Below, one piece after another: positions 42,690-52,738 of a DNA stretch of 64,000 bases (position 1 is the first letter of the stretch; each line of letters begins with the position of its first letter). Under the pieces are notes generated by a model. It was given only the letters and a program-made list of their open reading frames with translations. It was not told the DNA's origin and made no database searches. The position numbers and the translations under genes were made by a program. The DNA is from Pseudochrobactrum asaccharolyticum (GTDB lineage Bacteria; Pseudomonadota; Alphaproteobacteria; Rhizobiales; Rhizobiaceae): contig JBEBVV010000008.1 in assembly GCA_040392545.1 (NCBI GenBank), positions 19,306 through 83,305 on the forward strand. The letters run 5' to 3'.

Positions 42690-44066
42690 TCAGGCGGCGA
42701 CGCCTTGGGCATTGATATGGGACGGGTCTATATCATCAATATTTTTATGATCATTATAGACCGTCTCATCAAGAATGCCTTCACGCTTGGCAACAATTGT
42801 CGGCACCAGTGCCTGACCGGCGACATTGACGGCGGTGCGTCCCATATCGAGGATCGGGTCAATGGAGAGCAGCAGGCCGACACCTTCCAGCGGCAGGCCG
42901 AGCGTGGACAAAGTGAGCGTGAGCATCACCACCGCACCGGTGAGACCGGCTGTGGCTGCAGAACCTAGCACGGACACAAAGGCAATCAGCACATATTCCT
43001 GAAGACCGAGCGGCAACTCAAAATATTGCGCGATGAAAATAGCCGAGATGGCCGGATAGATTGCAGCACAACCATCCATTTTCGTCGTAGCACCAAGCGG
43101 CACGGCAAAAGCTGCATATTCACGCGGCACACCCAGATTGCGCTCGGTTACGGCTTCTGTGACCGGCAGAGTGCCGACAGAAGAGCGGGAAACGAAAGCG
43201 AGCTGGATAGCAGGCCATGCACCCGCAAAGAAACGCAGCGGCTTCAGGCCGTGGATGATAAGGATGGCCGGATAGACCACAAACAGTACCAGTGCCAGAC
43301 CGATATAAACGGCAATGGCATACCAGCTGAGCTGAACCAGTGTTTCCCAGCCATATTGGGCAACGGCGCGTCCCAGCAGGCCGATTGTGCCAAGCGGGGT
43401 GAGGCGGATAACCCACCACAGGATTTTACGCACCACGACCAGCAGCGACTGGTTGAAAGCAAGAAACGGCTTGGCGGCTTCACCGGCTTTCAATGCGGCA
43501 ACGCCGAAAGCAATGGCGACGACCAGAATTTGCAGCACATTGAAATTGAGCGATGTGGCGGCAGCGTCTTTGCCAAGTTTTGTGCTGGCTTCAAGGCCGA
43601 ACATATTGGCAGGCACCAGACCTTTGAGGAAGTCGAGCCATGAGCCGGAGGAGGCCGGTGCTTTGGCGGCATCGGCCATCACGCCGGAACCGATACCCGG
43701 CTGAATGATCAGCCCCAGTGCAATGCCGATCAGCACAGCGATAAAGGATGTGATCGCAAACCATAACAGGGTCTGCCAGACCAGTTTGGCGGCATTATTG
43801 ATGGCTGCCAGATTGGCGATGGAGGCGACAATAGCGGTAAAGACCAAAGGCGGCACAAGAGCGCGCAGCATCTGCACAAAGATTGTGCCGATTGTTTGCA
43901 GCGTTACGGAAAGCCAGTTGGCGTTTCCTTCAATATCAGGCCCCATATGGCGGGCGATCAGGCCGAGTAGCAAGCCGATGACCATGGCTACCAGTACCTG
44001 AAAACCGAAATTCCGATAAAATGGCTTGGCCTGAGCAGAAGATTTTTTCACATGAGCGTCAGACAT
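42690..44066 (-). CDS. Dicarboxylate/amino acid:cation symporter (DAACS)
   Basis: FVSRSSVGTLP, PLGATTKMDG, DPILDMGRTAVNV. Confidence 0.93.
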   Translation of the reverse strand: MSDAHVKKSSAQAKPFYRNFGFQVLVAMVIGLLLGLIARHMGPDIEGNANWLSVTLQTIGTIFVQMLRALVPPLVFTAIVASIANLAAINNAAKLVWQTLLWFAITSFIAVLIGIALGLIIQPGIGSGVMADAAKAPASSGSWLDFLKGLVPANMFGLEASTKLGKDAAATSLNFNVLQILVVAIAFGVAALKAGEAAKPFLAFNQSLLVVVRKILWWVIRLTPLGTIGLLGRAVAQYGWETLVQLSWYAIAVYIGLALVLFVVYPAILIIHGLKPLRFFAGAWPAIQLAFVSRSSVGTLPVTEAVTERNLGVPREYAAFAVPLGATTKMDGCAAIYPAISAIFIAQYFELPLGLQEYVLIAFVSVLGSAATAGLTGAVVMLTLTLSTLGLPLEGVGLLLSIDPILDMGRTAVNVAGQALVPTIVAKREGILDETVYNDHKNIDDIDPSHINAQGVAA

Positions 44067-44233
44067 GAATTTTTCTTTCAAAATAAGTGAAGCGAAGGGG
44101 CAAATTTTCTCCCTCCGCTTGAATGTCTGAAATTTTACCGGAGATAAATGGCGTCGTTAAGCGATTTTATGCTGCAAATTGGCGCCCAATTGGTGATTTG
44201 TGCTTATTTATTTATATTTGTTGGTATTAAATT

Positions 44234-44695
44234 CTAGTCTTGCAATATGTGAGAATTTATATTCTTCTTGGTGGCGGAAAAGTGCTGGTGGAAAATTTCC
44301 CGATATTCCTCAAGCGCCAGATCCGGCAGGTTGATCGCAATTTGCGGTTCAAACCAGCCAAGCTCTGTATGCTCATCGCCGAGCAAGTGCAGTTCACCTG
44401 TCCATGAACTGCACTGATAGATCGTCATGATCAGATCATCGGCCAAATTCTGTGCCTGAGTCTGTGCCGGATTCGGGGCTTTGATCCGGAACTGATGCAG
44501 AAATTGCAGCTCCGTGGCTTCAATATTCAACTCTTCGCGCAATTCACGCAAAGCCGTCTCAAATGGTGTTTCAGCGGCCTCGCTATGGCCGCCGAATAAA
44601 GCCCATGAAGAAGGGTAGAGACGGCGATGTGCTGAGCGTTTGCCCAGCAATATCTTATCCTGACGGATCAGCATAATATTGCTGATCCGGTTCAT
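44234..44695 (-). CDS. Nudix hydrolase
   Basis: Nudix box GGHSEAAETPFETALRELREELN; ATGA overlap with the uvrD stop. Confidence 0.88.
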   Translation of the reverse strand: MNRISNIMLIRQDKILLGKRSAHRRLYPSSWALFGGHSEAAETPFETALRELREELNIEATELQFLHQFRIKAPNPAQTQAQNLADDLIMTIYQCSSWTGELHLLGDEHTELGWFEPQIAINLPDLALEEYREIFHQHFSATKKNINSHILQD

Positions 44696-47307
44696 GTGCG
44701 TTTTACAAAACTGTCGATGACGCGTTTCTGACCGGCATGGTCAAAGTCGATTGTTAGCTTGTTACCGTCAATAGAGGCAATATTGCCATTGCCGAATTTC
44801 ATATGAAAAACGCGGTCGCCGATTTTGAAATCGGATGGCGTTGATGAAACGGATTTTGCGACGAGCTCACCGTCAATCACTCTGCCTTTGACGGAACCGC
44901 GACCGGCACCGAAACCGGAATCCGTTTCGCCATAGCCGATACGTTCCACATTGGCACCGGAGCGCGAGCCCCAATTGTTGCGCGTGGCATCGGAGCGGTT
45001 TTGCTGCGCACGCTGCCAGCCCGGTGTGGCGTAGGAATTGGCAAAAGGATCGCCGCGCCCCACAGCATCAAAGCGGGACTGGCCGTAGCCGCCGCCATAG
45101 GAACTGTCGGATTCTGCAACATCCACATGTTCTTCCGGCAATTCTTCCAGAAAACGCGACGGGATTGTAGTCTGCCACATGCCATGAATGCGGCGGTTGG
45201 AAACAAACCAGATATGCAGATTTTTCTTGGCACGGGTCAGGCCAACATAGGCCAGACGGCGTTCTTCCTCCAGCCCTGAACGGCCGCCTTCATCCAGCGC
45301 GCGCTGGTGCGGAAACAGGCCTTCTTCCCAGCCAGGCAGGAAAACAGTTTGAAATTCCAGACCTTTAGCCGAATGCAGGGTCATAATATTGACCGCATCC
45401 ATGCCTTCATTCTGCTCTGTATCCATGACCAGAGCCACATGCTCCAGAAAGCCGCGAAGACTTTCATAATCTTCCATGGAGCGGATCAGTTCTTTCAGGT
45501 TTTCCAGACGACCCGGCGCTTCGGCGGAGCGGTCATTCTGCCACATCGCCGTATAACCGGATTCATCGAGAATGATCTCGGCCAGTTCCGTATGGGATTT
45601 ATTGTCAATCAGTCCCTGCCAGCGGCGGAAATTTTCAACCACTTCGCGCAAGGCAGAGCGGGCTTTGGGCTTCAGCTCTTCCGTGGCAATCAGATCTTCT
45701 GCCGCAAGCAGCATCGGCATATTTTTTGCCCGTGCATAGTCGTGCACCAGTCGCAGGCTTGCTTCACCAAGGCCGCGCTTCGGCGTGTTGACGATACGCT
45801 CAAAAGCCAGATCATCGGCAGGCTGCGCAACCACGCGGAAATAGGCCATGGCATCGCGGATTTCCTGCCGCTCATAGAAACGCGGGCCGCCGATCACGCG
45901 GTAATTCAGGCCAAGCGTGACAAAGCGGTCTTCAAATTCGCGCATCTGGAAAGAAGCGCGCACCAGAATAGCCATATTATTGAGCAGATGGCCGCCACGC
46001 TGCGCCTGTTCAATTTCCTCGCCCACCGCGCGGGCTTCTTCTTCAGAATCCCATGCTGCGTGAACATGGACTTTCTGATCATCGGGATCAGCCGCCTGTG
46101 CTTGCAGGGTTTTGCCAAGACGCCCCTCATTATGGGCAATCAGATAGGATGCCGCACCGAGAATATGTGGCGTGGAGCGGTAATTGCGCTCAAGGCGGAT
46201 GATCGTTGCGCCGGGAAAATCCTTGTCAAAGCGCAGGATATTATCCACTTCCGCTCCGCGCCAGCCATAGATCGACTGGTCATCATCGCCTACACAGCAG
46301 ATGTTAATCTGTTGTGTCGATTTATTTGTGCTCACGCTGTCGCCGCTAACGCGGCTGCGCTCCGCAGGGGCGGCTGAAAAGTCAGCCGGTGACCAGTCGG
46401 TCGCGTTGGGCGTGCTTTGTGGTTGTGTTGGTGCTGATTGGGCGTTTGAGTTACTTGGTCTTTGCGCCAGCAGTCTCAGCCACATATATTGCGCGGTATT
46501 GGTATCCTGATACTCATCCACCAGAATATAGCGGAATTTGGCATGATATTCGCGCAAAATATCCGGATAGTTGCGGAAAATCCGGATCGGATGCAGCAGA
46601 AGATCGCCGAAGTCACAGGCATTCAGCGTTTTCAGACGTTCCTGATAGGCCTGATAAAGTTCGCGCCCCTTGCCATTAGCGAAAGCACGCGCATCACCTT
46701 CGGAAATATCCGACGGGCCATAGCCTTTATTCTTCCAGCCGTCGATCATCATCGAGAAGGAGCGTGGCGTCCAGCGTTTGTCGTCCAGCCCTTCCGCCTG
46801 AATGAGTTGCTTGAGCAGGCGGATCACATCATCCGTATCAAGAATGGTAAAATCAGAGCGCAGCCCTGCCAGTTCCGCATGGCGGCGCAGAATTTTCACA
46901 CCAATCGAGTGGAATGTGCCAAGCCATGGCATGCCTTCAACCGCGCCGCCGACCAGATGGCCGATACGTTCTTTCATCTCGCGGGCGGCTTTATTGGTAA
47001 AAGTTACGGCGAGGATCTGGCTCGGAAATGCCAGTCCCTGCTGCAGAATATGGGCAATACGTGTGGTCAGAACGCGGGTTTTGCCCGTACCGGCTCCGGC
47101 GAGTACCAGCACCGGCCCTTCCGTGGTGACAACAGCCTGCCGCTGCTCGGGGTTCAGCCCCTGCAGATAAGGCGGCTCGCCACGCTGCTGGTTGCGCGCC
47201 TGCATAGCGCGCGCGGCAATACCAGATGCAGCGCCCGATTGCGGCTGCGGTGTTGCCGGTTCATCCGGCTCCCCGAAGAAAGGGATATCGTCTGGAAAGT
47301 CTGACAT
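44692..47307 (-). CDS. uvrD: UvrD/PcrA superfamily 1 DNA helicase
   Basis: AGAGTGKT, TFTNKAA, DEYQD, GDDDQSIYGWRGA, NYRS, TLHSAKGLEF, YVGLTRA, C-terminal Tudor-like domain. Confidence 0.95.
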   Translation of the reverse strand: MSDFPDDIPFFGEPDEPATPQPQSGAASGIAARAMQARNQQRGEPPYLQGLNPEQRQAVVTTEGPVLVLAGAGTGKTRVLTTRIAHILQQGLAFPSQILAVTFTNKAAREMKERIGHLVGGAVEGMPWLGTFHSIGVKILRRHAELAGLRSDFTILDTDDVIRLLKQLIQAEGLDDKRWTPRSFSMMIDGWKNKGYGPSDISEGDARAFANGKGRELYQAYQERLKTLNACDFGDLLLHPIRIFRNYPDILREYHAKFRYILVDEYQDTNTAQYMWLRLLAQRPSNSNAQSAPTQPQSTPNATDWSPADFSAAPAERSRVSGDSVSTNKSTQQINICCVGDDDQSIYGWRGAEVDNILRFDKDFPGATIIRLERNYRSTPHILGAASYLIAHNEGRLGKTLQAQAADPDDQKVHVHAAWDSEEEARAVGEEIEQAQRGGHLLNNMAILVRASFQMREFEDRFVTLGLNYRVIGGPRFYERQEIRDAMAYFRVVAQPADDLAFERIVNTPKRGLGEASLRLVHDYARAKNMPMLLAAEDLIATEELKPKARSALREVVENFRRWQGLIDNKSHTELAEIILDESGYTAMWQNDRSAEAPGRLENLKELIRSMEDYESLRGFLEHVALVMDTEQNEGMDAVNIMTLHSAKGLEFQTVFLPGWEEGLFPHQRALDEGGRSGLEEERRLAYVGLTRAKKNLHIWFVSNRRIHGMWQTTIPSRFLEELPEEHVDVAESDSSYGGGYGQSRFDAVGRGDPFANSYATPGWQRAQQNRSDATRNNWGSRSGANVERIGYGETDSGFGAGRGSVKGRVIDGELVAKSVSSTPSDFKIGDRVFHMKFGNGNIASIDGNKLTIDFDHAGQKRVIDSFVKRT

Positions 47308-47349
47308 GGTTCCGAATGTAATGATTCTTAAGCGAAACGCCATAGATGA

Positions 47350-47364
47350 GAACAAATAAAGTAC
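47350..47364 (-). promoter_or_regulatory. Alphaproteobacterial LexA (SOS) box upstream of uvrD
   Basis: GAAC-AAATAAA-GTAC matches GAAC-N7-G(A/T)AC. Confidence 0.75.
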
Positions 47365-47389
47365 CTGTATTTTACGCAGGTACTTTATT
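47355..47389 (-). terminator. Hairpin downstream of the kinase gene
   Basis: AATAAAGTACCTG-N9-CAGGTACTTTATT perfect 13-bp inverted repeat. Confidence 0.6.
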
Positions 47390-47426
47390 CAGGCAACTAT
47401 TGCAGCATTATAGAAGTAAAAAACGG

Positions 47427-48503
47427 CTATTCCAGTTGTGTAATACGCCGGTCGGTGAAATTCAGCCGGTGTGCGGCCAGTGCTTCCACCAGCAGGCGCA
47501 TATCCGGCTCACGCTGCAACAATTCATCCAGTTCAGTCATCTGGTTCATGGCTACAAGGCGCAGAATATCTTCACGGATTGTGCCGTCTGCACGGCGCGG
47601 CAAATGGGCAACCGGCTGGATCAGCTCCACCTTATGACCCTTAAGGCGTGCCCGCAGTGATTTCTCATCGGCCTGCAAGGTTTCAACAAACGCATAAATC
47701 CCCACGCCTTTGGCCGGCAGGGAATAGAGGCTCAAAGCAACATCTTTCACACGCGGATCGGATTTCAGCGCGGCAACAATGGCCGGACCTTCATTATCAA
47801 TACGGTCGCCGGTTCCTTCACCATCCGACCAGTTGAAGATGCCGCGGGTGATGAAATTATAGACCTGCTTGCCGGTGGACAGCCAGATGCGTGACGGCAG
47901 CGAGCGGCGCGCCAGAATACGCTTTTCGGTCGGGGTCATCAGGTCAGGCGCAAAATTGCGCTTCTGTTTGATGAGGTGACGGAAATCCTCATAGGCCATC
48001 AGCCGGTAATAAGCGCCACGGCGGCGATGCACGGAAGCCAGCTGAAAATCAATCACAGCGGCTTCGCCTTCCGGCGTCATCAGCCAGTTTTGCGGCTTCT
48101 GCAAATCATTATGGGTTACGCCCATGCGGCGCATATCACGCAAAATGCGGTGCGCCGAGCGGTACCATTCCCGATGTGAAGGGCGCGCCAGATGCAAAGG
48201 CGTACCGTCTGTCCAGGTGCGGAACAGGCCGTGTTTATCGGTTGCCAGCAATTGCGGCGTGCCTTTGATGCCGCGCACTTTCTTCAGGCCACGGATTTCA
48301 CGCCGTGCCAGCCACCATGCCAGCGGGCTTGACCACCACGGCGCGGCGCTGACCACGCGGCGGATGATACGGGTTTCCGGATCGCCTGCAAAATGACCGG
48401 CGCGGGTTTCCGAGAAAATGTCCCGTTTGAAAACGGCAGTCTCATAAAAATCCGGAATGGTTTCCATGAGTTGGGAATTGGTCCCGGATGTTGAATAATT
48501 CAT
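47427..48503 (-). CDS. RIO/Kdo-like protein-kinase-fold protein fused to an acyl-CoA-synthetase-like C-terminal domain
   Basis: HNDLQKPQN catalytic loop and IDFQLA; C-terminal KGVGIYAFV and LIQPVAHLPRRADGTIREDILR resemble the Acs C-domain (aligned by eye). Confidence 0.8.
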   Translation of the reverse strand: MNYSTSGTNSQLMETIPDFYETAVFKRDIFSETRAGHFAGDPETRIIRRVVSAAPWWSSPLAWWLARREIRGLKKVRGIKGTPQLLATDKHGLFRTWTDGTPLHLARPSHREWYRSAHRILRDMRRMGVTHNDLQKPQNWLMTPEGEAAVIDFQLASVHRRRGAYYRLMAYEDFRHLIKQKRNFAPDLMTPTEKRILARRSLPSRIWLSTGKQVYNFITRGIFNWSDGEGTGDRIDNEGPAIVAALKSDPRVKDVALSLYSLPAKGVGIYAFVETLQADEKSLRARLKGHKVELIQPVAHLPRRADGTIREDILRLVAMNQMTELDELLQREPDMRLLVEALAAHRLNFTDRRITQLE

Positions 48504-48766
48504 GATAATGTCACAGAGATACAGTCAATTCTGGTGCGGGTCGGTACGAAGCCTGAGCCTCTACGAAATGATATTGGTTGTTATGTGACAGCTGTAAAGG
48601 TTCGAGGCAGGCGGATCAAGTGTGACAGGGCATTTTGAACGCGTGAACAGGGGAACAAAGGCAAAGCTCGCATGAAATGCCTTGTTGTGACTGACAGCCT
48701 GCCGTTATGGTGCGCCAGTCATGTGATTCATGAAGCGTTCCGCATTGTATAAATGGGAACGGCAAA

Positions 48767-48861
48767 GTTGCAGAAGCGGCGGTGTTATTTAAAGCCTGCA
48801 AAGCGGCATTGTTACAGAATGGCTGCAAAGCAGCATTGTTATATAGTGGCTGCATAGCAGC
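48767..48861. repeat. Degenerate 27-bp tandem repeat (about 3.5 copies)
   Basis: GTTGCAGAAGCGGCGGTGTTATTTAAAG / CCTGCAAAGCGGCATTGTTACAGAATG / GCTGCAAAGCAGCATTGTTATATAGTG / GCTGCATAGCAGC. Confidence 0.85.
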
Positions 48862-48877
48862 CGGAGAGTTTAAGAAT

Positions 48878-51800
48878 TTGGGACGGTTGTTCGTTATTAT
48901 TGGCGGTTTGCTGGTGCTGGTGCTGACTTTGGCGCTGGTTGTGCCGCCTTTTATTGACTGGACAGGCTATCGCGATCGTTTTGAGCAGGAAGCCGGACGG
49001 ATTTTAGGTCGTCCTGTTCACGTCAACGGTACGGCCAATGCACGTTTGCTGCCGTTTCCTTCTGTCACTTTCTCCGATGTGGTTGTGGAAGCGCCGGATG
49101 GCGGCAATGCGCTGACCATGGAAAAATTCTCCATGGATGCCGAGCTGATGCCGTTCTTACGCGGGCAAATTCTGATCTTTGATATGCGGATGGAAAAGCC
49201 GCAGCTTTCCGCAGGGTTGAATCAGCAGGGGCAGTTTAACTGGGCCTTGCCGGAAAAGAGCGATCTTGCCGCCAGCAAAATACGGCTGGAAAAACTGACC
49301 TTGCATGACGGGCAGATTAGCTTACGCGATGAAGCGCGCGGGCGGGAACAGAAATTCAGCAAGATTAATGCAACTTTATCGGCGGAAAATCTGGCAGGCC
49401 CCTGGCGTATCAACGGGCATATGCTGGCTGATGACCAGCCTTTTACCGTGGAAATTTCCACAGCCGAGAAAAAGCCGGATGAGCCGCTGAAACTGCGTCT
49501 GCGGCTGTTGCCGGATGATCTGGCTGTCTCTTTGGAGACGGAAGGTGAATTGACGGCGGAAGATGACAAGCCGCTTTATCAGGGACAATTCGCGTTTCTC
49601 ACCCTTAATAACGATGATCGCAAACCGAAAAATGCAGTCACGCTCGACAAGCTGCGCCTGACCGGTAAATTTGCCGCCAAGAGCAGCGGCTTTGATATTG
49701 AAGAATTCCGCATGGAGCAGGGCGAGGCTGATGCGCCCTATGTGATTAACGGTAAAGCGCAGCTTGATCTGGCGGAAAATCCGCATTTTATGATCAGCGC
49801 AGATGGCCAGCAGGTCTATCTTGACGGTATGAAACCGGATGTTGCTGTGCCGAATAAAACCGTGACCGATCAGCCGGTCTTGTCTTTCCGTGAGAAAATT
49901 GACTTTCTGCAGACCCTGCTGGAACGCATTCCGGTGCCGGATATGCCGGGCAATATTGACCTGCGCCTGCCTGCCATTATCGCCAGCGGCACTACAATCC
50001 GCTCGATCATTATTCGGGCAGAACCGGATAATGGCGCGTGGAATATCAGCCAGTTACAGGCCGACCTGCCGGGGCGTACGCAGATTGAGGCCAAGGGTAA
50101 ATTGCAGCTTGGCGCAGATTTCGGCTTTCAGGGCGATTTTCTGCTGGCCTCGCGCCAGCCTGCCGGTTTTGCTTCATGGCTGACCGGTGAAGCGGGTACA
50201 AAAACACCGGCCGCCTTGGGGCAGGTGCCTGCTGCCGGTTTTTCCGGAAAAATCCTGCTGAATAATAATCTGCAGCAGATCAATGATCTGGAAATTGTGC
50301 TGGGTGAGACGGTTCTGAACGGTAAATTCGAGCGGCGCAGTGATGTGCGCCATGCGGCTTCATCCTCGCTGGATATTACCGGTAAAGCGCTTGATACCGG
50401 CGTGATGCAGGCGCTGAGCAGCCTGTTCTTGCGTGAAGGTGATCTGTCCGGTCTGGCGGGAGAAAATCTGACCGTGCATCTGAAAGCTGGTCCTGTGATG
50501 TGTTCGGGGCTTGAAGCCGGTGAGGTGGATACGGTTTTCCGGCTTAATGGCGGCAAGCTGGATTTCGACCGGTTGATGATCAGCGCGGTGGAAGGTGCGA
50601 ATATTTCGGCGACCGGTTCGCTGCAACTGCTTGATAATTCAGTCAATGCCACACTTGATGCAACGGTTCTGGCCGATGATCTGGCGCCTTTATTGCGTGG
50701 GTTGAAGACTGCCTTTCCCCATGAGCCGTTGATTGCGGGGCTTCAGGACAGGGCGGCGGCCTATCCGGAATTATTTGCCGGTACCAAGCTTGATCTGATC
50801 CTCAATGCCGTCAATCTTTTTGCGGATGGCGATCAGGAAAAAGCAGCGACAAAAGCGCCGGATAATGCAAAGCCTGATAATGCAAAACCGGAGCAGGCAA
50901 AAGGTGATGCTGCGCGTGCAGGACGTGTTAAAAACGCCGCGAAGAAAACGGATGCTGCAAAATCCGATATTGCCGAATTGTCTTTCAGTCTGAACGGGCA
51001 GACAGAGGCGCTGATTATCTCGGTTGCCGGTTCGTCAAAAGGCACGCTGACAGGGCCTGATCCGATGCAATTATCGCTGACGGCCAATGCCAAAGCGGCA
51101 TCCGGCGAGGCGGCATTGGCCTTGCTCGGCATGCCGGTTCTGCCGCTCGGACTGATGAGCGAGGGAGAGATTAATTTACAGGCGCAGGGCGCACCTGTGG
51201 CCGGCATGAAAACCGCGCTTGAACTGAGCGGTGAAGATGGCCGTGCACGCCTTGACGGGGTGATTACCCTGACCGGTGATGAAGTGGCAGCCAGCGGTAA
51301 AGCCGTGTTGAAAAGCGATGATCTGGAGCCGTTTCTGGCAACAACCGGCTATGCACTGCCCTTCGGGCGCGGATTCGGCAATGGTCTTCCGGTTGATATT
51401 ACAAGTGATTTTCAGATCGGTAAGAATATTGTCCGCCTGCCGAACCTGCAAGGACAGCTTGATGGTGAAACGGTCAGCGCCAAGCTGGATGGTTCTTTGA
51501 GTGATCAGTCTGTGGCGCAGTTGCGCGGCGAGATTGCATTGGAGCGGCTCGATCTAACGGCACTGTTCGCGGCAATGACAGGTCTGCCGGTGGCGGATAT
51601 TCAGGGTGCTGACTGGTCAGCGCAGAATTTTGGCAAAAAGAGTAATTTGCCGATTGCCATGAATTTGCGTGTCACTGCCGGAGCGGCTGCGCTTTCAGAC
51701 AGTGCTTCCATACAGAATTTTTCTGCCCGTCTTGTCAAAAATGACCAGCAATTGCAGGTGAGCGAAATTGGCGGGCAATGGGCGAAGGGCAAATTATCCG

Positions 51801-52738
51801 GCAAGCTGGAACTGAATAATGCCAATGGCACGGTGCTTGCGAGCGGTGATCTGCGCCTGAGCAATGCAGATATGGCCGTGCTTTATCAACCGGCAGAACT
51901 GGTGCCGCCGCTTGGAGGCGAGGGGGACCTTAAACTCGGCTTTACCGGCAGCGGTCAATCCATGGCGGATCTGGTTCATTCTCTGGCCGGTGAAGGCGCG
52001 CTGAGTATTACTGCGCCTGTTGTGGCCGGTTTGAATGTGGCGGCAATGGAAGAAGTGCTGATACAGTCCGATGCTGTGTCTGATCATAGGACTACCGGTG
52101 CTGATCAGAAACAGGCCGAGGCCGAGCGTCTCAAATTGGCACAGATCTTGGCACAAGGCGGTATGCTGCGTGCAGATCAGACCGAGGCGAAACTGACATT
52201 GGCGAGCGGTATTTTGCGTCTTGCCGGGATGAAAATGCAAAATGACAAGGCCGTTTTGCAGGGCGATTTCCAGCTAGATTTCAACACGCTGGATTGGGGT
52301 GGCAATGGCGCTTTGGAACTGCTGTTGCCTGCCGCAGAGCGCAATGATGTGGCGGCACAAGTGCAATTTGCCTTATCGGGAAGCTGGGCTGCGCCGCTGG
52401 TGACATTTGATTATCAGCCGATGGTGCAGTTTTTGACCCAGCGCGCTTTGCTGCGTGAGCAGCAGCGGGCAGAGGCGGCGCAGGCGCTGATTATTGAGCG
52501 TCAGCGGTTGAAACGCGAAGCCGATTATTACGCGGCCAAATTGGCGGAGCGCAAACAATTACGTCTCGAAACTGAAGCTGAATTGCGCAGACGTGCCCAG
52601 CAAGCCACAGGCAGTGGCACGCAATTGCCGCAATATATGCCACGGCAGAATGTTGCGCCGTCGCCGGATTTTAAGCCAAGTCTTGATGAATTCCTGCAAA
52701 ATCTGCCGGAGACGCAGTTACAACCGGCTCAGGAATGA
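48878..52738 (+). CDS. AsmA-family large periplasmic protein
   Basis: TTG start after GGAGAG; N-terminal TM, PPFIDW...LGRPVHVNG...LLPFP; beta-rich repeats; C-terminal coiled coil. Confidence 0.88.
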   Translation: MGRLFVIIGGLLVLVLTLALVVPPFIDWTGYRDRFEQEAGRILGRPVHVNGTANARLLPFPSVTFSDVVVEAPDGGNALTMEKFSMDAELMPFLRGQILIFDMRMEKPQLSAGLNQQGQFNWALPEKSDLAASKIRLEKLTLHDGQISLRDEARGREQKFSKINATLSAENLAGPWRINGHMLADDQPFTVEISTAEKKPDEPLKLRLRLLPDDLAVSLETEGELTAEDDKPLYQGQFAFLTLNNDDRKPKNAVTLDKLRLTGKFAAKSSGFDIEEFRMEQGEADAPYVINGKAQLDLAENPHFMISADGQQVYLDGMKPDVAVPNKTVTDQPVLSFREKIDFLQTLLERIPVPDMPGNIDLRLPAIIASGTTIRSIIIRAEPDNGAWNISQLQADLPGRTQIEAKGKLQLGADFGFQGDFLLASRQPAGFASWLTGEAGTKTPAALGQVPAAGFSGKILLNNNLQQINDLEIVLGETVLNGKFERRSDVRHAASSSLDITGKALDTGVMQALSSLFLREGDLSGLAGENLTVHLKAGPVMCSGLEAGEVDTVFRLNGGKLDFDRLMISAVEGANISATGSLQLLDNSVNATLDATVLADDLAPLLRGLKTAFPHEPLIAGLQDRAAAYPELFAGTKLDLILNAVNLFADGDQEKAATKAPDNAKPDNAKPEQAKGDAARAGRVKNAAKKTDAAKSDIAELSFSLNGQTEALIISVAGSSKGTLTGPDPMQLSLTANAKAASGEAALALLGMPVLPLGLMSEGEINLQAQGAPVAGMKTALELSGEDGRARLDGVITLTGDEVAASGKAVLKSDDLEPFLATTGYALPFGRGFGNGLPVDITSDFQIGKNIVRLPNLQGQLDGETVSAKLDGSLSDQSVAQLRGEIALERLDLTALFAAMTGLPVADIQGADWSAQNFGKKSNLPIAMNLRVTAGAAALSDSASIQNFSARLVKNDQQLQVSEIGGQWAKGKLSGKLELNNANGTVLASGDLRLSNADMAVLYQPAELVPPLGGEGDLKLGFTGSGQSMADLVHSLAGEGALSITAPVVAGLNVAAMEEVLIQSDAVSDHRTTGADQKQAEAERLKLAQILAQGGMLRADQTEAKLTLASGILRLAGMKMQNDKAVLQGDFQLDFNTLDWGGNGALELLLPAAERNDVAAQVQFALSGSWAAPLVTFDYQPMVQFLTQRALLREQQRAEAAQALIIERQRLKREADYYAAKLAERKQLRLETEAELRRRAQQATGSGTQLPQYMPRQNVAPSPDFKPSLDEFLQNLPETQLQPAQE

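Follow-up and report, generated by a model that had tools for sequence, protein, structure and literature searches.

A predicted atypical kinase joined to an acetyl-CoA synthetase-type lid domain in Pseudochrobactrum asaccharolyticum

In the ANL family of adenylating enzymes, to which acetyl-CoA synthetase (Acs) belongs, the C-terminal subdomain closes as a lid over the nucleotide site, and in Acs the residue R584 contacts the 3'-phosphate of CoA. To our knowledge, no ANL lid subdomain has been described apart from an adenylating enzyme, of which it forms the C-terminal part. Here we analyzed a 64,000-nucleotide stretch of Pseudochrobactrum asaccharolyticum DNA (contig JBEBVV010000008.1; hereafter the window, in whose numbering all positions are given), which holds a gene for a predicted kinase with such a lid at its C terminus. 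The open reading frame (ORF) at 47427..48503 on the minus strand, on which all features of the gene are read, encodes a protein of 358 residues (P0001), and all motif coordinates agreed on re-translation. Translation may alternatively begin at Met13 (48467), since residues 1 to 12 are not conserved. The gene product is a soluble two-domain protein, an atypical kinase whose accessory domain is without precedent, and this structure is solidly established.

The C-terminal domain (residues ~235 to 345, 47469..47801) required a family profile for its recognition, because searches with the single sequence were too weak. At E <= 10, Pfam reported nothing on the C-terminal third of the protein, PF13193 included, and phmmer with residues 225 to 358 alone gave a single match in the PDB, an Acs C terminus at E = 1.3. 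With a profile of residues 232 to 358 built from 32 sequences, the Acs C-terminal domain 4u5y_D was matched at an E value of 2.5e-13; the top 18 rows were all Acs, and other ANL enzymes appeared from about 1e-7. A profile of the whole family, run against 401 alphaproteobacterial genomes, matched the C terminus of Acs-sized ORFs of 650 to 680 residues in about 58 genomes (E values of 1e-16 to 1e-18). Distant family members match Pfam AMP-binding_C outright as well as NCBIfam acetate--CoA ligase models, and in the ESM Atlas two sister clusters have AMP-binding_C in 44 to 48% of their members. Folded alone (pLDDT 86), the domain matched Acs in Foldseek with an E value of 1.6e-5, and VIA-align superimposed it on residues 517 to 647 of Salmonella enterica Acs with a Z score of 13.8 and a root mean square deviation of 2.5 Å over 117 of 127 residues. 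The first forty rows of VIA-align were all Acs-like enzymes, and other ANL enzymes covered only model residues 1 to 90, with a Z score of about 10. By profile and by model, the domain is of the Acs type specifically, including the terminal helices that only Acs-like enzymes possess, and the match is far beyond chance; the Acs homology that a preliminary description of the gene had proposed by eye is borne out.

The profile alignment places L-P-K-T-R-S-G-K of Acs opposite L301-P-R-R-A-D-G-T308 in the A10-like hairpin L301-P-R-R-A-D-G307-T308-I-R310 (47574..47603). Thr308 (47580-47582) stands at the position of the catalytic A10 lysine (K609 of S. enterica Acs), as had been noticed in the preliminary description, and the re-translated ORF agrees. 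Conservation was counted in 202 non-identical full-length homologs of 35 to 95% identity. P302 is invariant (202/202), G307 and R310 are each kept in 191, and position 303 is Arg or Lys in 198, while residue 308 varies: Thr in 83, Ser in 41, Ala in 17, Arg in 16, Glu in 11, Gly in 10, Asn in 7 and Lys in only 5. The P302-x4-G307 part of the PX4GK acetylation motif is therefore kept and its lysine is absent. Other polar residues of the domain, Q296, D312 and N320, are also retained among the homologs. The stretch aligned with the R584 helix of Acs is variable in sequence and length, with insertions and deletions among homologs. No Pfam match to the ANL N-terminal AMP-binding domain (PF00501) was found at E <= 10, the N-terminal 234 residues being those of the kinase. 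Because the ANL N-domain is missing, the A10 lysine position is unconstrained and the R584 region is variable, the protein, as far as its sequence tells, cannot adenylate a substrate or form a thioester.

Residues ~14 to 234 (47802..48464), which end in W225-S-D227-G-E-G-T-G-D-R234, are predicted from alignments and model to be a minimal kinase of the Hanks/RIO/LanKC kind. The AlphaFold2 model of the 358-residue protein, made with 89 homologs, reached a pLDDT of 91.7 and a pTM of 0.75 and shows the bilobal kinase fold. Foldseek with the whole model retrieved the kinase domain of class III lanthipeptide synthetases (LanKC), CK2 and Rio2 at E values of about 1e-7; that list was filled by kinases and was uninformative for the C-terminal domain. 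A profile of the kinase part (42 sequences, kinase-only relatives included) matched StkP at 3.5e-9 and Rio2 at 4e-7. Both lines of evidence agree with the RIO/Kdo-like kinase fold first suggested for this region on account of its HNDLQKPQN loop. This catalytic loop, H131-N-D133-L-Q-K136-P-Q-N139 (48087..48113), resembles the Hanks-type HRDLKPQN of StkP with one inserted residue; H131, D133 and K136 show no variation, and 200 of the homologs have N139. In addition to the catalytic Asp and Asn, the metal-binding Asp is present in the DFG equivalent D152-F-Q154 (48042..48050), in which D152 and Q154 are invariant, and E69 (48297..48299; 201/202) lies opposite the αC Glu of StkP.

The residues that anchor ATP are displaced in this kinase. 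The β1-β2 turn, the usual place of the Gly-rich loop, reads K26-R-D-I-F-S-E (K-R-D-x-F-S-E in the family) and holds no such loop; within K26-R27-D28 (48420..48428), K26 and D28 are found in all 202 homologs. The RIIRR segment brings the invariant R49 (48357..48359) to the β3 (VAIK) Lys position, or one residue off it in the StkP alignment, so that the β3 Lys/αC Glu pair is represented by E69 with an Arg at the Lys position. Both peculiarities had been recognized in the preliminary description. We presume that K26 might act like the Lys that WNK kinases carry at a relocated position. The module has a very short activation segment and lacks the GHI (substrate-binding) helices. The conservation of the phosphotransfer core speaks for an active enzyme, and the displaced ATP-anchoring residues make the predicted kinase an atypical one. 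A complex prediction that paired the lid domain with the kinase part (residues 13 to 231), ATP and Mg being supplied to the latter, scored 0.18, the mark being 0.32.

The fused family has a tail of its own, R346-L-N348-F-T350-D351-R352 (47448..47468), just past the profile-aligned Acs region, where model confidence is low from residue 351-352. R346 is kept in 201 of the 202 homologs and N348, D351 and R352 in 198 each, and position 350 is Thr in 180 and Ser in 13 (193 together). Together with Q296, R303, R310, D312 and N320, this tail forms the conserved polar set that is the lid domain's own. A conserved phospho-acceptor in the lid half, if there is any, would be T350 and not T308. At the other end of the lid, the junction can be placed at about residues 235 to 239, because kinase-only relatives of 216 to 240 residues, which are widespread, end in W-x-D-x-E-G-x-G-x-R, the equivalent of residues 225 to 234 here; GDR (232-234) then belongs to the kinase module. 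The aligned range of VIA-align begins at Acs residue 517. The pairing of GDR with the A8 motif GHR of Acs, proposed earlier, is doubtful, and we rejected it as evidence of Acs homology, since kinase-only proteins carry the same tail. The entire stretch W-S-D-G-E-G-T-G-D-R (225-234, 47802-47831) bears a loose resemblance to the hinge motif A8 of ANL enzymes (R-x-D-D ... G-x-R). This look is either due to chance or a remnant that marks the kinase-only forms as truncated fusions; the kinase-only forms themselves are either ancestral or truncations.

The sequence family is not new but already catalogued in NCBIfam and, for some members, in Pfam. The protein matches NF006620 (PRK09188, "serine/threonine protein kinase") end to end, residues 9 to 357 on model positions 10 to 364 of 365, with 571.3 bits against a curated cut-off of 490; the match to NF008910 (PRK12274, a model of 219 positions) is limited to residues 39 to 233. 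For both families, "serine/threonine protein kinase" is a database name without a described function. In the literature we found no paper on NF006620 or NF008910, on the kinase-Acs-lid architecture or on the function of the family, in line with the earlier remark that no characterized protein of this architecture was known. Pfam matches of the 358-residue protein, all around the catalytic loop, stayed below threshold (Kdo at 17.1 with a cut-off of 21.3, APH at 15.3 with 23.2, Pkinase at 14.7 with 31.7), and no match to Pfam RIO1 was reported. The closest database protein, with 95% identity, is from Pseudochrobactrum algeriensis, and relatives of 60 to 90% identity come from Brucella/Ochrobactrum, Phyllobacterium, Bartonella, Mesorhizobium and Hoeflea.

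At a threshold of E <= 1e-20, 42 of the 201 genomes sampled from its own GTDB family carry the gene (31 of 135 genera). A full-length match was present in 3 of 121 genomes of the order-wide sample, and the kinase model matched 9 of 301 genomes phylum-wide and 0 of 14 model organisms. Among species-representative genomes, a scan brought up at least 580 loci, including those of Rhizobiales and many Rhodobacterales (such as Roseovarius, Nioella, Pseudooceanicola and Octadecabacter), and carriers of the fusion include Brucella, Ochrobactrum, Bartonella, Mesorhizobium, Bradyrhizobium-like genomes and Roseovarius. Among close relatives, the C-terminal domain is as conserved as the kinase; this conservation and the persistence of the fusion in Rhizobiales and Rhodobacterales indicate that the domain is under selection. 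Variant architectures were also seen. The metagenomic relative P0129 (480 residues) carries two tandem lid copies behind the kinase, the second with the full P-x4-G-K (PRDSKGK) and a score of 77 bits against the acetate--CoA ligase model. In P0168 and P0180 (476 residues), a kinase module of ~41 to 42% identity over ~210 residues follows a ceramidase-like polytopic membrane domain (Pfam Ceramidase just under the cut-off). Since the module occurs alone and fused to this ceramidase-like domain, its sequence relatives mark it as a catalytic unit that can be combined with various accessory domains. Apparent lid-only proteins of 124 to 184 residues were discarded: several start at the Met of W-M-A-T-G-K in the last helix of the kinase and look like truncated gene calls. 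A copy of the gene with 92% identity lies on a 407-kb contig (L081, JAHREI010000004.1) labelled 'Bacillus subtilis strain SK6B4', an assembly that is probably mislabelled or contaminated.

We examined the neighbors of the gene in 80 related loci. In the window, uvrD (44692..47355, minus strand) follows about 72 to 73 nucleotides downstream on the same strand, and the same arrangement, at ~73 nucleotides, is seen in 32 of the 80 loci, all of Rhizobiales type. Rhodobacterales have an aldehyde dehydrogenase gene upstream and, downstream and convergent, a gene for an RluA-type pseudouridine synthase. In f41, a family of Bradyrhizobium size (L165-L169, L039), 5 of 5 carriers have a trmFO gene (GIDA family, ~470 residues) directly upstream in the same orientation, and one genome of another family (G019, locus L038) has uvrA upstream and trmFO ~900 nucleotides downstream; in the window's genome, trmFO is on another contig. 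The intergenic stretch between the kinase gene and uvrD contains an AT-rich hairpin (47360-47400, minus strand), AAGTACCTG...CAGGTACTT, followed by the T-run TATTTGTT. This hairpin may be a terminator or attenuator; a consensus terminator scan made no call on it. An Rfam scan of 44000-49500 matched no family, and no SOS box (GTTC-N7-GTTC) occurs anywhere in the 64,000 nucleotides.

Two further observations concern the genes on either side. The UvrD of the window (887 residues) has a low-complexity insertion of ~55 residues, rich in Ser, Pro, Gln and Ala, between helicase motifs (~46290-46455, minus strand), and it ends in a C-terminal PcrA/UvrD Tudor domain. At 48774-48854 there are three tandem 27-nucleotide units, 74% identical to the reference copy, with a weaker fourth unit at 48677-48703; the repeats lie at the annotated start of an AsmA-family ORF of 1318 residues (48782-52738, plus strand) and encode a repeated KAALL peptide. 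Because KAALL falls at its predicted N terminus, the true start of the AsmA-like protein may lie downstream.

Taking these features together, we infer with moderate confidence that the gene encodes an atypical but active kinase, or else a RIO-like ATPase, in which the exapted Acs lid and the tail serve as a non-catalytic recognition or regulatory module. The predicted kinase would phosphorylate a substrate or hydrolyze ATP in the manner of RIO proteins, and the lid with its tail would recognize that substrate or a nucleotide-like ligand. Purely by inference from the ANL enzymes, the lid could instead gate the kinase cleft as the ANL lid does the nucleotide site. Several points weigh against this proposal. 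The β3 Lys and the Gly-rich loop are both missing, relatives of the RIO/Bud32 type are chiefly ATPases, the polar residues conserved in the C-terminal domain could be structural or part of an interdomain interface and not a binding site, and no neighboring gene is universal or shared across clades to hint at a substrate. It is doubtful that the lid targets the kinase to Acs or other acyl-CoA ligases, or senses acyl-AMP or CoA, and so places acyl-CoA synthesis under phospho-control; if true, Brucella, rhizobia and roseobacters would have a kinase-operated analog of the acetylation switch formed by Pat and CobB.

Could the lid act on an ANL enzyme in trans? As a mimic of the Acs domain, it would dock on the N-domain of Acs or another ANL ligase, and the kinase would phosphorylate or block that ligase. 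The specifically Acs-type domain with its Acs-only terminal helices fits this idea, as do the retained P-x4-G hairpin, which faces the N-domain in ANL enzymes, and the eight ANL enzymes of the host genome, Acs-size ORFs among them. However, none of the 80 loci shows linkage to acs or another ANL gene, and the lid residues that serve the active site of the N-domain, the A10 Lys and the R584 equivalent, are not conserved, so we consider such a mimic unlikely.

The gene neighbors suggest another role, that of a RIO/Bud32-like ATPase switch working with DNA-repair or tRNA-modification enzymes, the lid binding a nucleotide or an RNA or DNA end. Genes for nucleic-acid enzymes (uvrD, trmFO, uvrA and the RluA-type gene) adjoin the kinase gene in several clades, and the kinase, like RIO and Bud32, lacks the substrate-binding GHI helices. 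Yet each of these linkages is confined to one clade and the rluA-like gene is convergent; in the window, the hairpin and T-run separate the kinase gene from uvrD, no SOS box is present, and trmFO is not even on the same contig. On balance this switch seems improbable.

The weak Pfam matches to Kdo and APH, the fusion of the module to a ceramidase-like seven-transmembrane (7-TM) domain in other bacteria and a 4HBT_2 thioesterase gene upstream in 13 loci would suit a kinase of the Kdo/APH type that acts on small molecules or lipids and whose lid would hold an acyl-, CoA- or AMP-like substrate. We find this rather unlikely, because the catalytic loop H-x-D-L-x-K-P-Q-N, set beside HRDLKPQN of StkP, contains the Lys that is typical of protein Ser/Thr kinases, the best sequence matches are Hanks kinases, and the CoA and AMP contact residues of Acs have been lost.

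The preliminary description had also considered a docking module for the acetyltransferase Pat or the deacetylase CobB, and the fold is indeed that of the Acs C-terminal domain crystallized with the GNAT domain of Pat (4u5y_D). The P-x4-G of the PX4GK motif is kept as well, and the second lid of P0129 even has the complete motif; what is absent here is the lysine. We searched five carrier genomes for Pat and sirtuins through PF13549 and PF02146. Within those two families, other types of acetyltransferase and deacetylase lying outside the search, neither the window's genome (G000, 78% complete) nor a genome of the same genus (G235, 99% complete) has a Pat-type ATP-grasp_5 protein or a SIR2 protein; both give only a weak ATP-grasp_5 match of ~400 residues, taken to be the succinyl-CoA synthetase beta subunit by its size. 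Of the other carriers, some have only the Pat-like protein, some only the sirtuin and some the two together, with no consistent co-occurrence. The docking idea is weakened by these results, and a non-acetylatable decoy for Pat or CobB appears very unlikely. Least credible is a switch in which phosphorylation of Thr308 replaces acetyl control, since this position, although Thr or Ser in 124 of 202 homologs, also accepts Ala, Arg, Glu, Gly, Asn and Lys between the conserved G307 and R310, the very variability named beforehand as refuting it, and T350 in the near-invariant tail (Thr or Ser in 193) is the better acceptor candidate.

Returning to the kinase or RIO-like ATPase with an exapted lid, the present value of the family is that of a well-defined, testable orphan and not of a mechanism. 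An ANL lid has been kept under selection without its enzyme and without its catalytic lysine, joined to a kinase that is itself odd in its Arg for the β3 Lys, its missing Gly-rich loop and its invariant Lys in the first strand. Identification of the substrate would assign a role to the widely occurring annotation "serine/threonine protein kinase" and would show how a dead Acs lid is reused.

Compared with known systems, the C-terminal domain has the same fold as the Acs lid (S. enterica Acs 517-652; PDB 1PG4 and 2P2F, and 4U5Y for the domain alone), with Z scores of 12 to 14 and an E value of 2.5e-13, and shares with it the P-x4-G of the A10 hairpin and the terminal helices peculiar to Acs-like ANL enzymes. 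Unlike the Acs lid, it has no ANL N-domain, its A10 Lys is a family-variable Thr, its R584-equivalent region is variable, and it sits behind a kinase and before the new R-x-N-x-T-D-R tail. The kinase module shares the fold, the HxD...N loop, the DFG-type Asp and the αC Glu with the Hanks kinases StkP and PknB, with RIO2 and with the kinase domain of CurKC and ThurKC, whereas it differs from them in lacking a Gly-rich loop and the GHI helices, in having Arg for the β3 Lys, an extra catalytic-loop residue and a very short activation segment, and in falling below the Pfam cut-offs. Within its own kin, the protein is a full-length member of NF006620, and NF008910 describes a relative that has this kinase module alone. 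With the ceramidase-like 7-TM fusions P0168 and P0180 it has the kinase module in common; their accessory domain, in contrast to the lid described here, is N-terminal and membrane-embedded.

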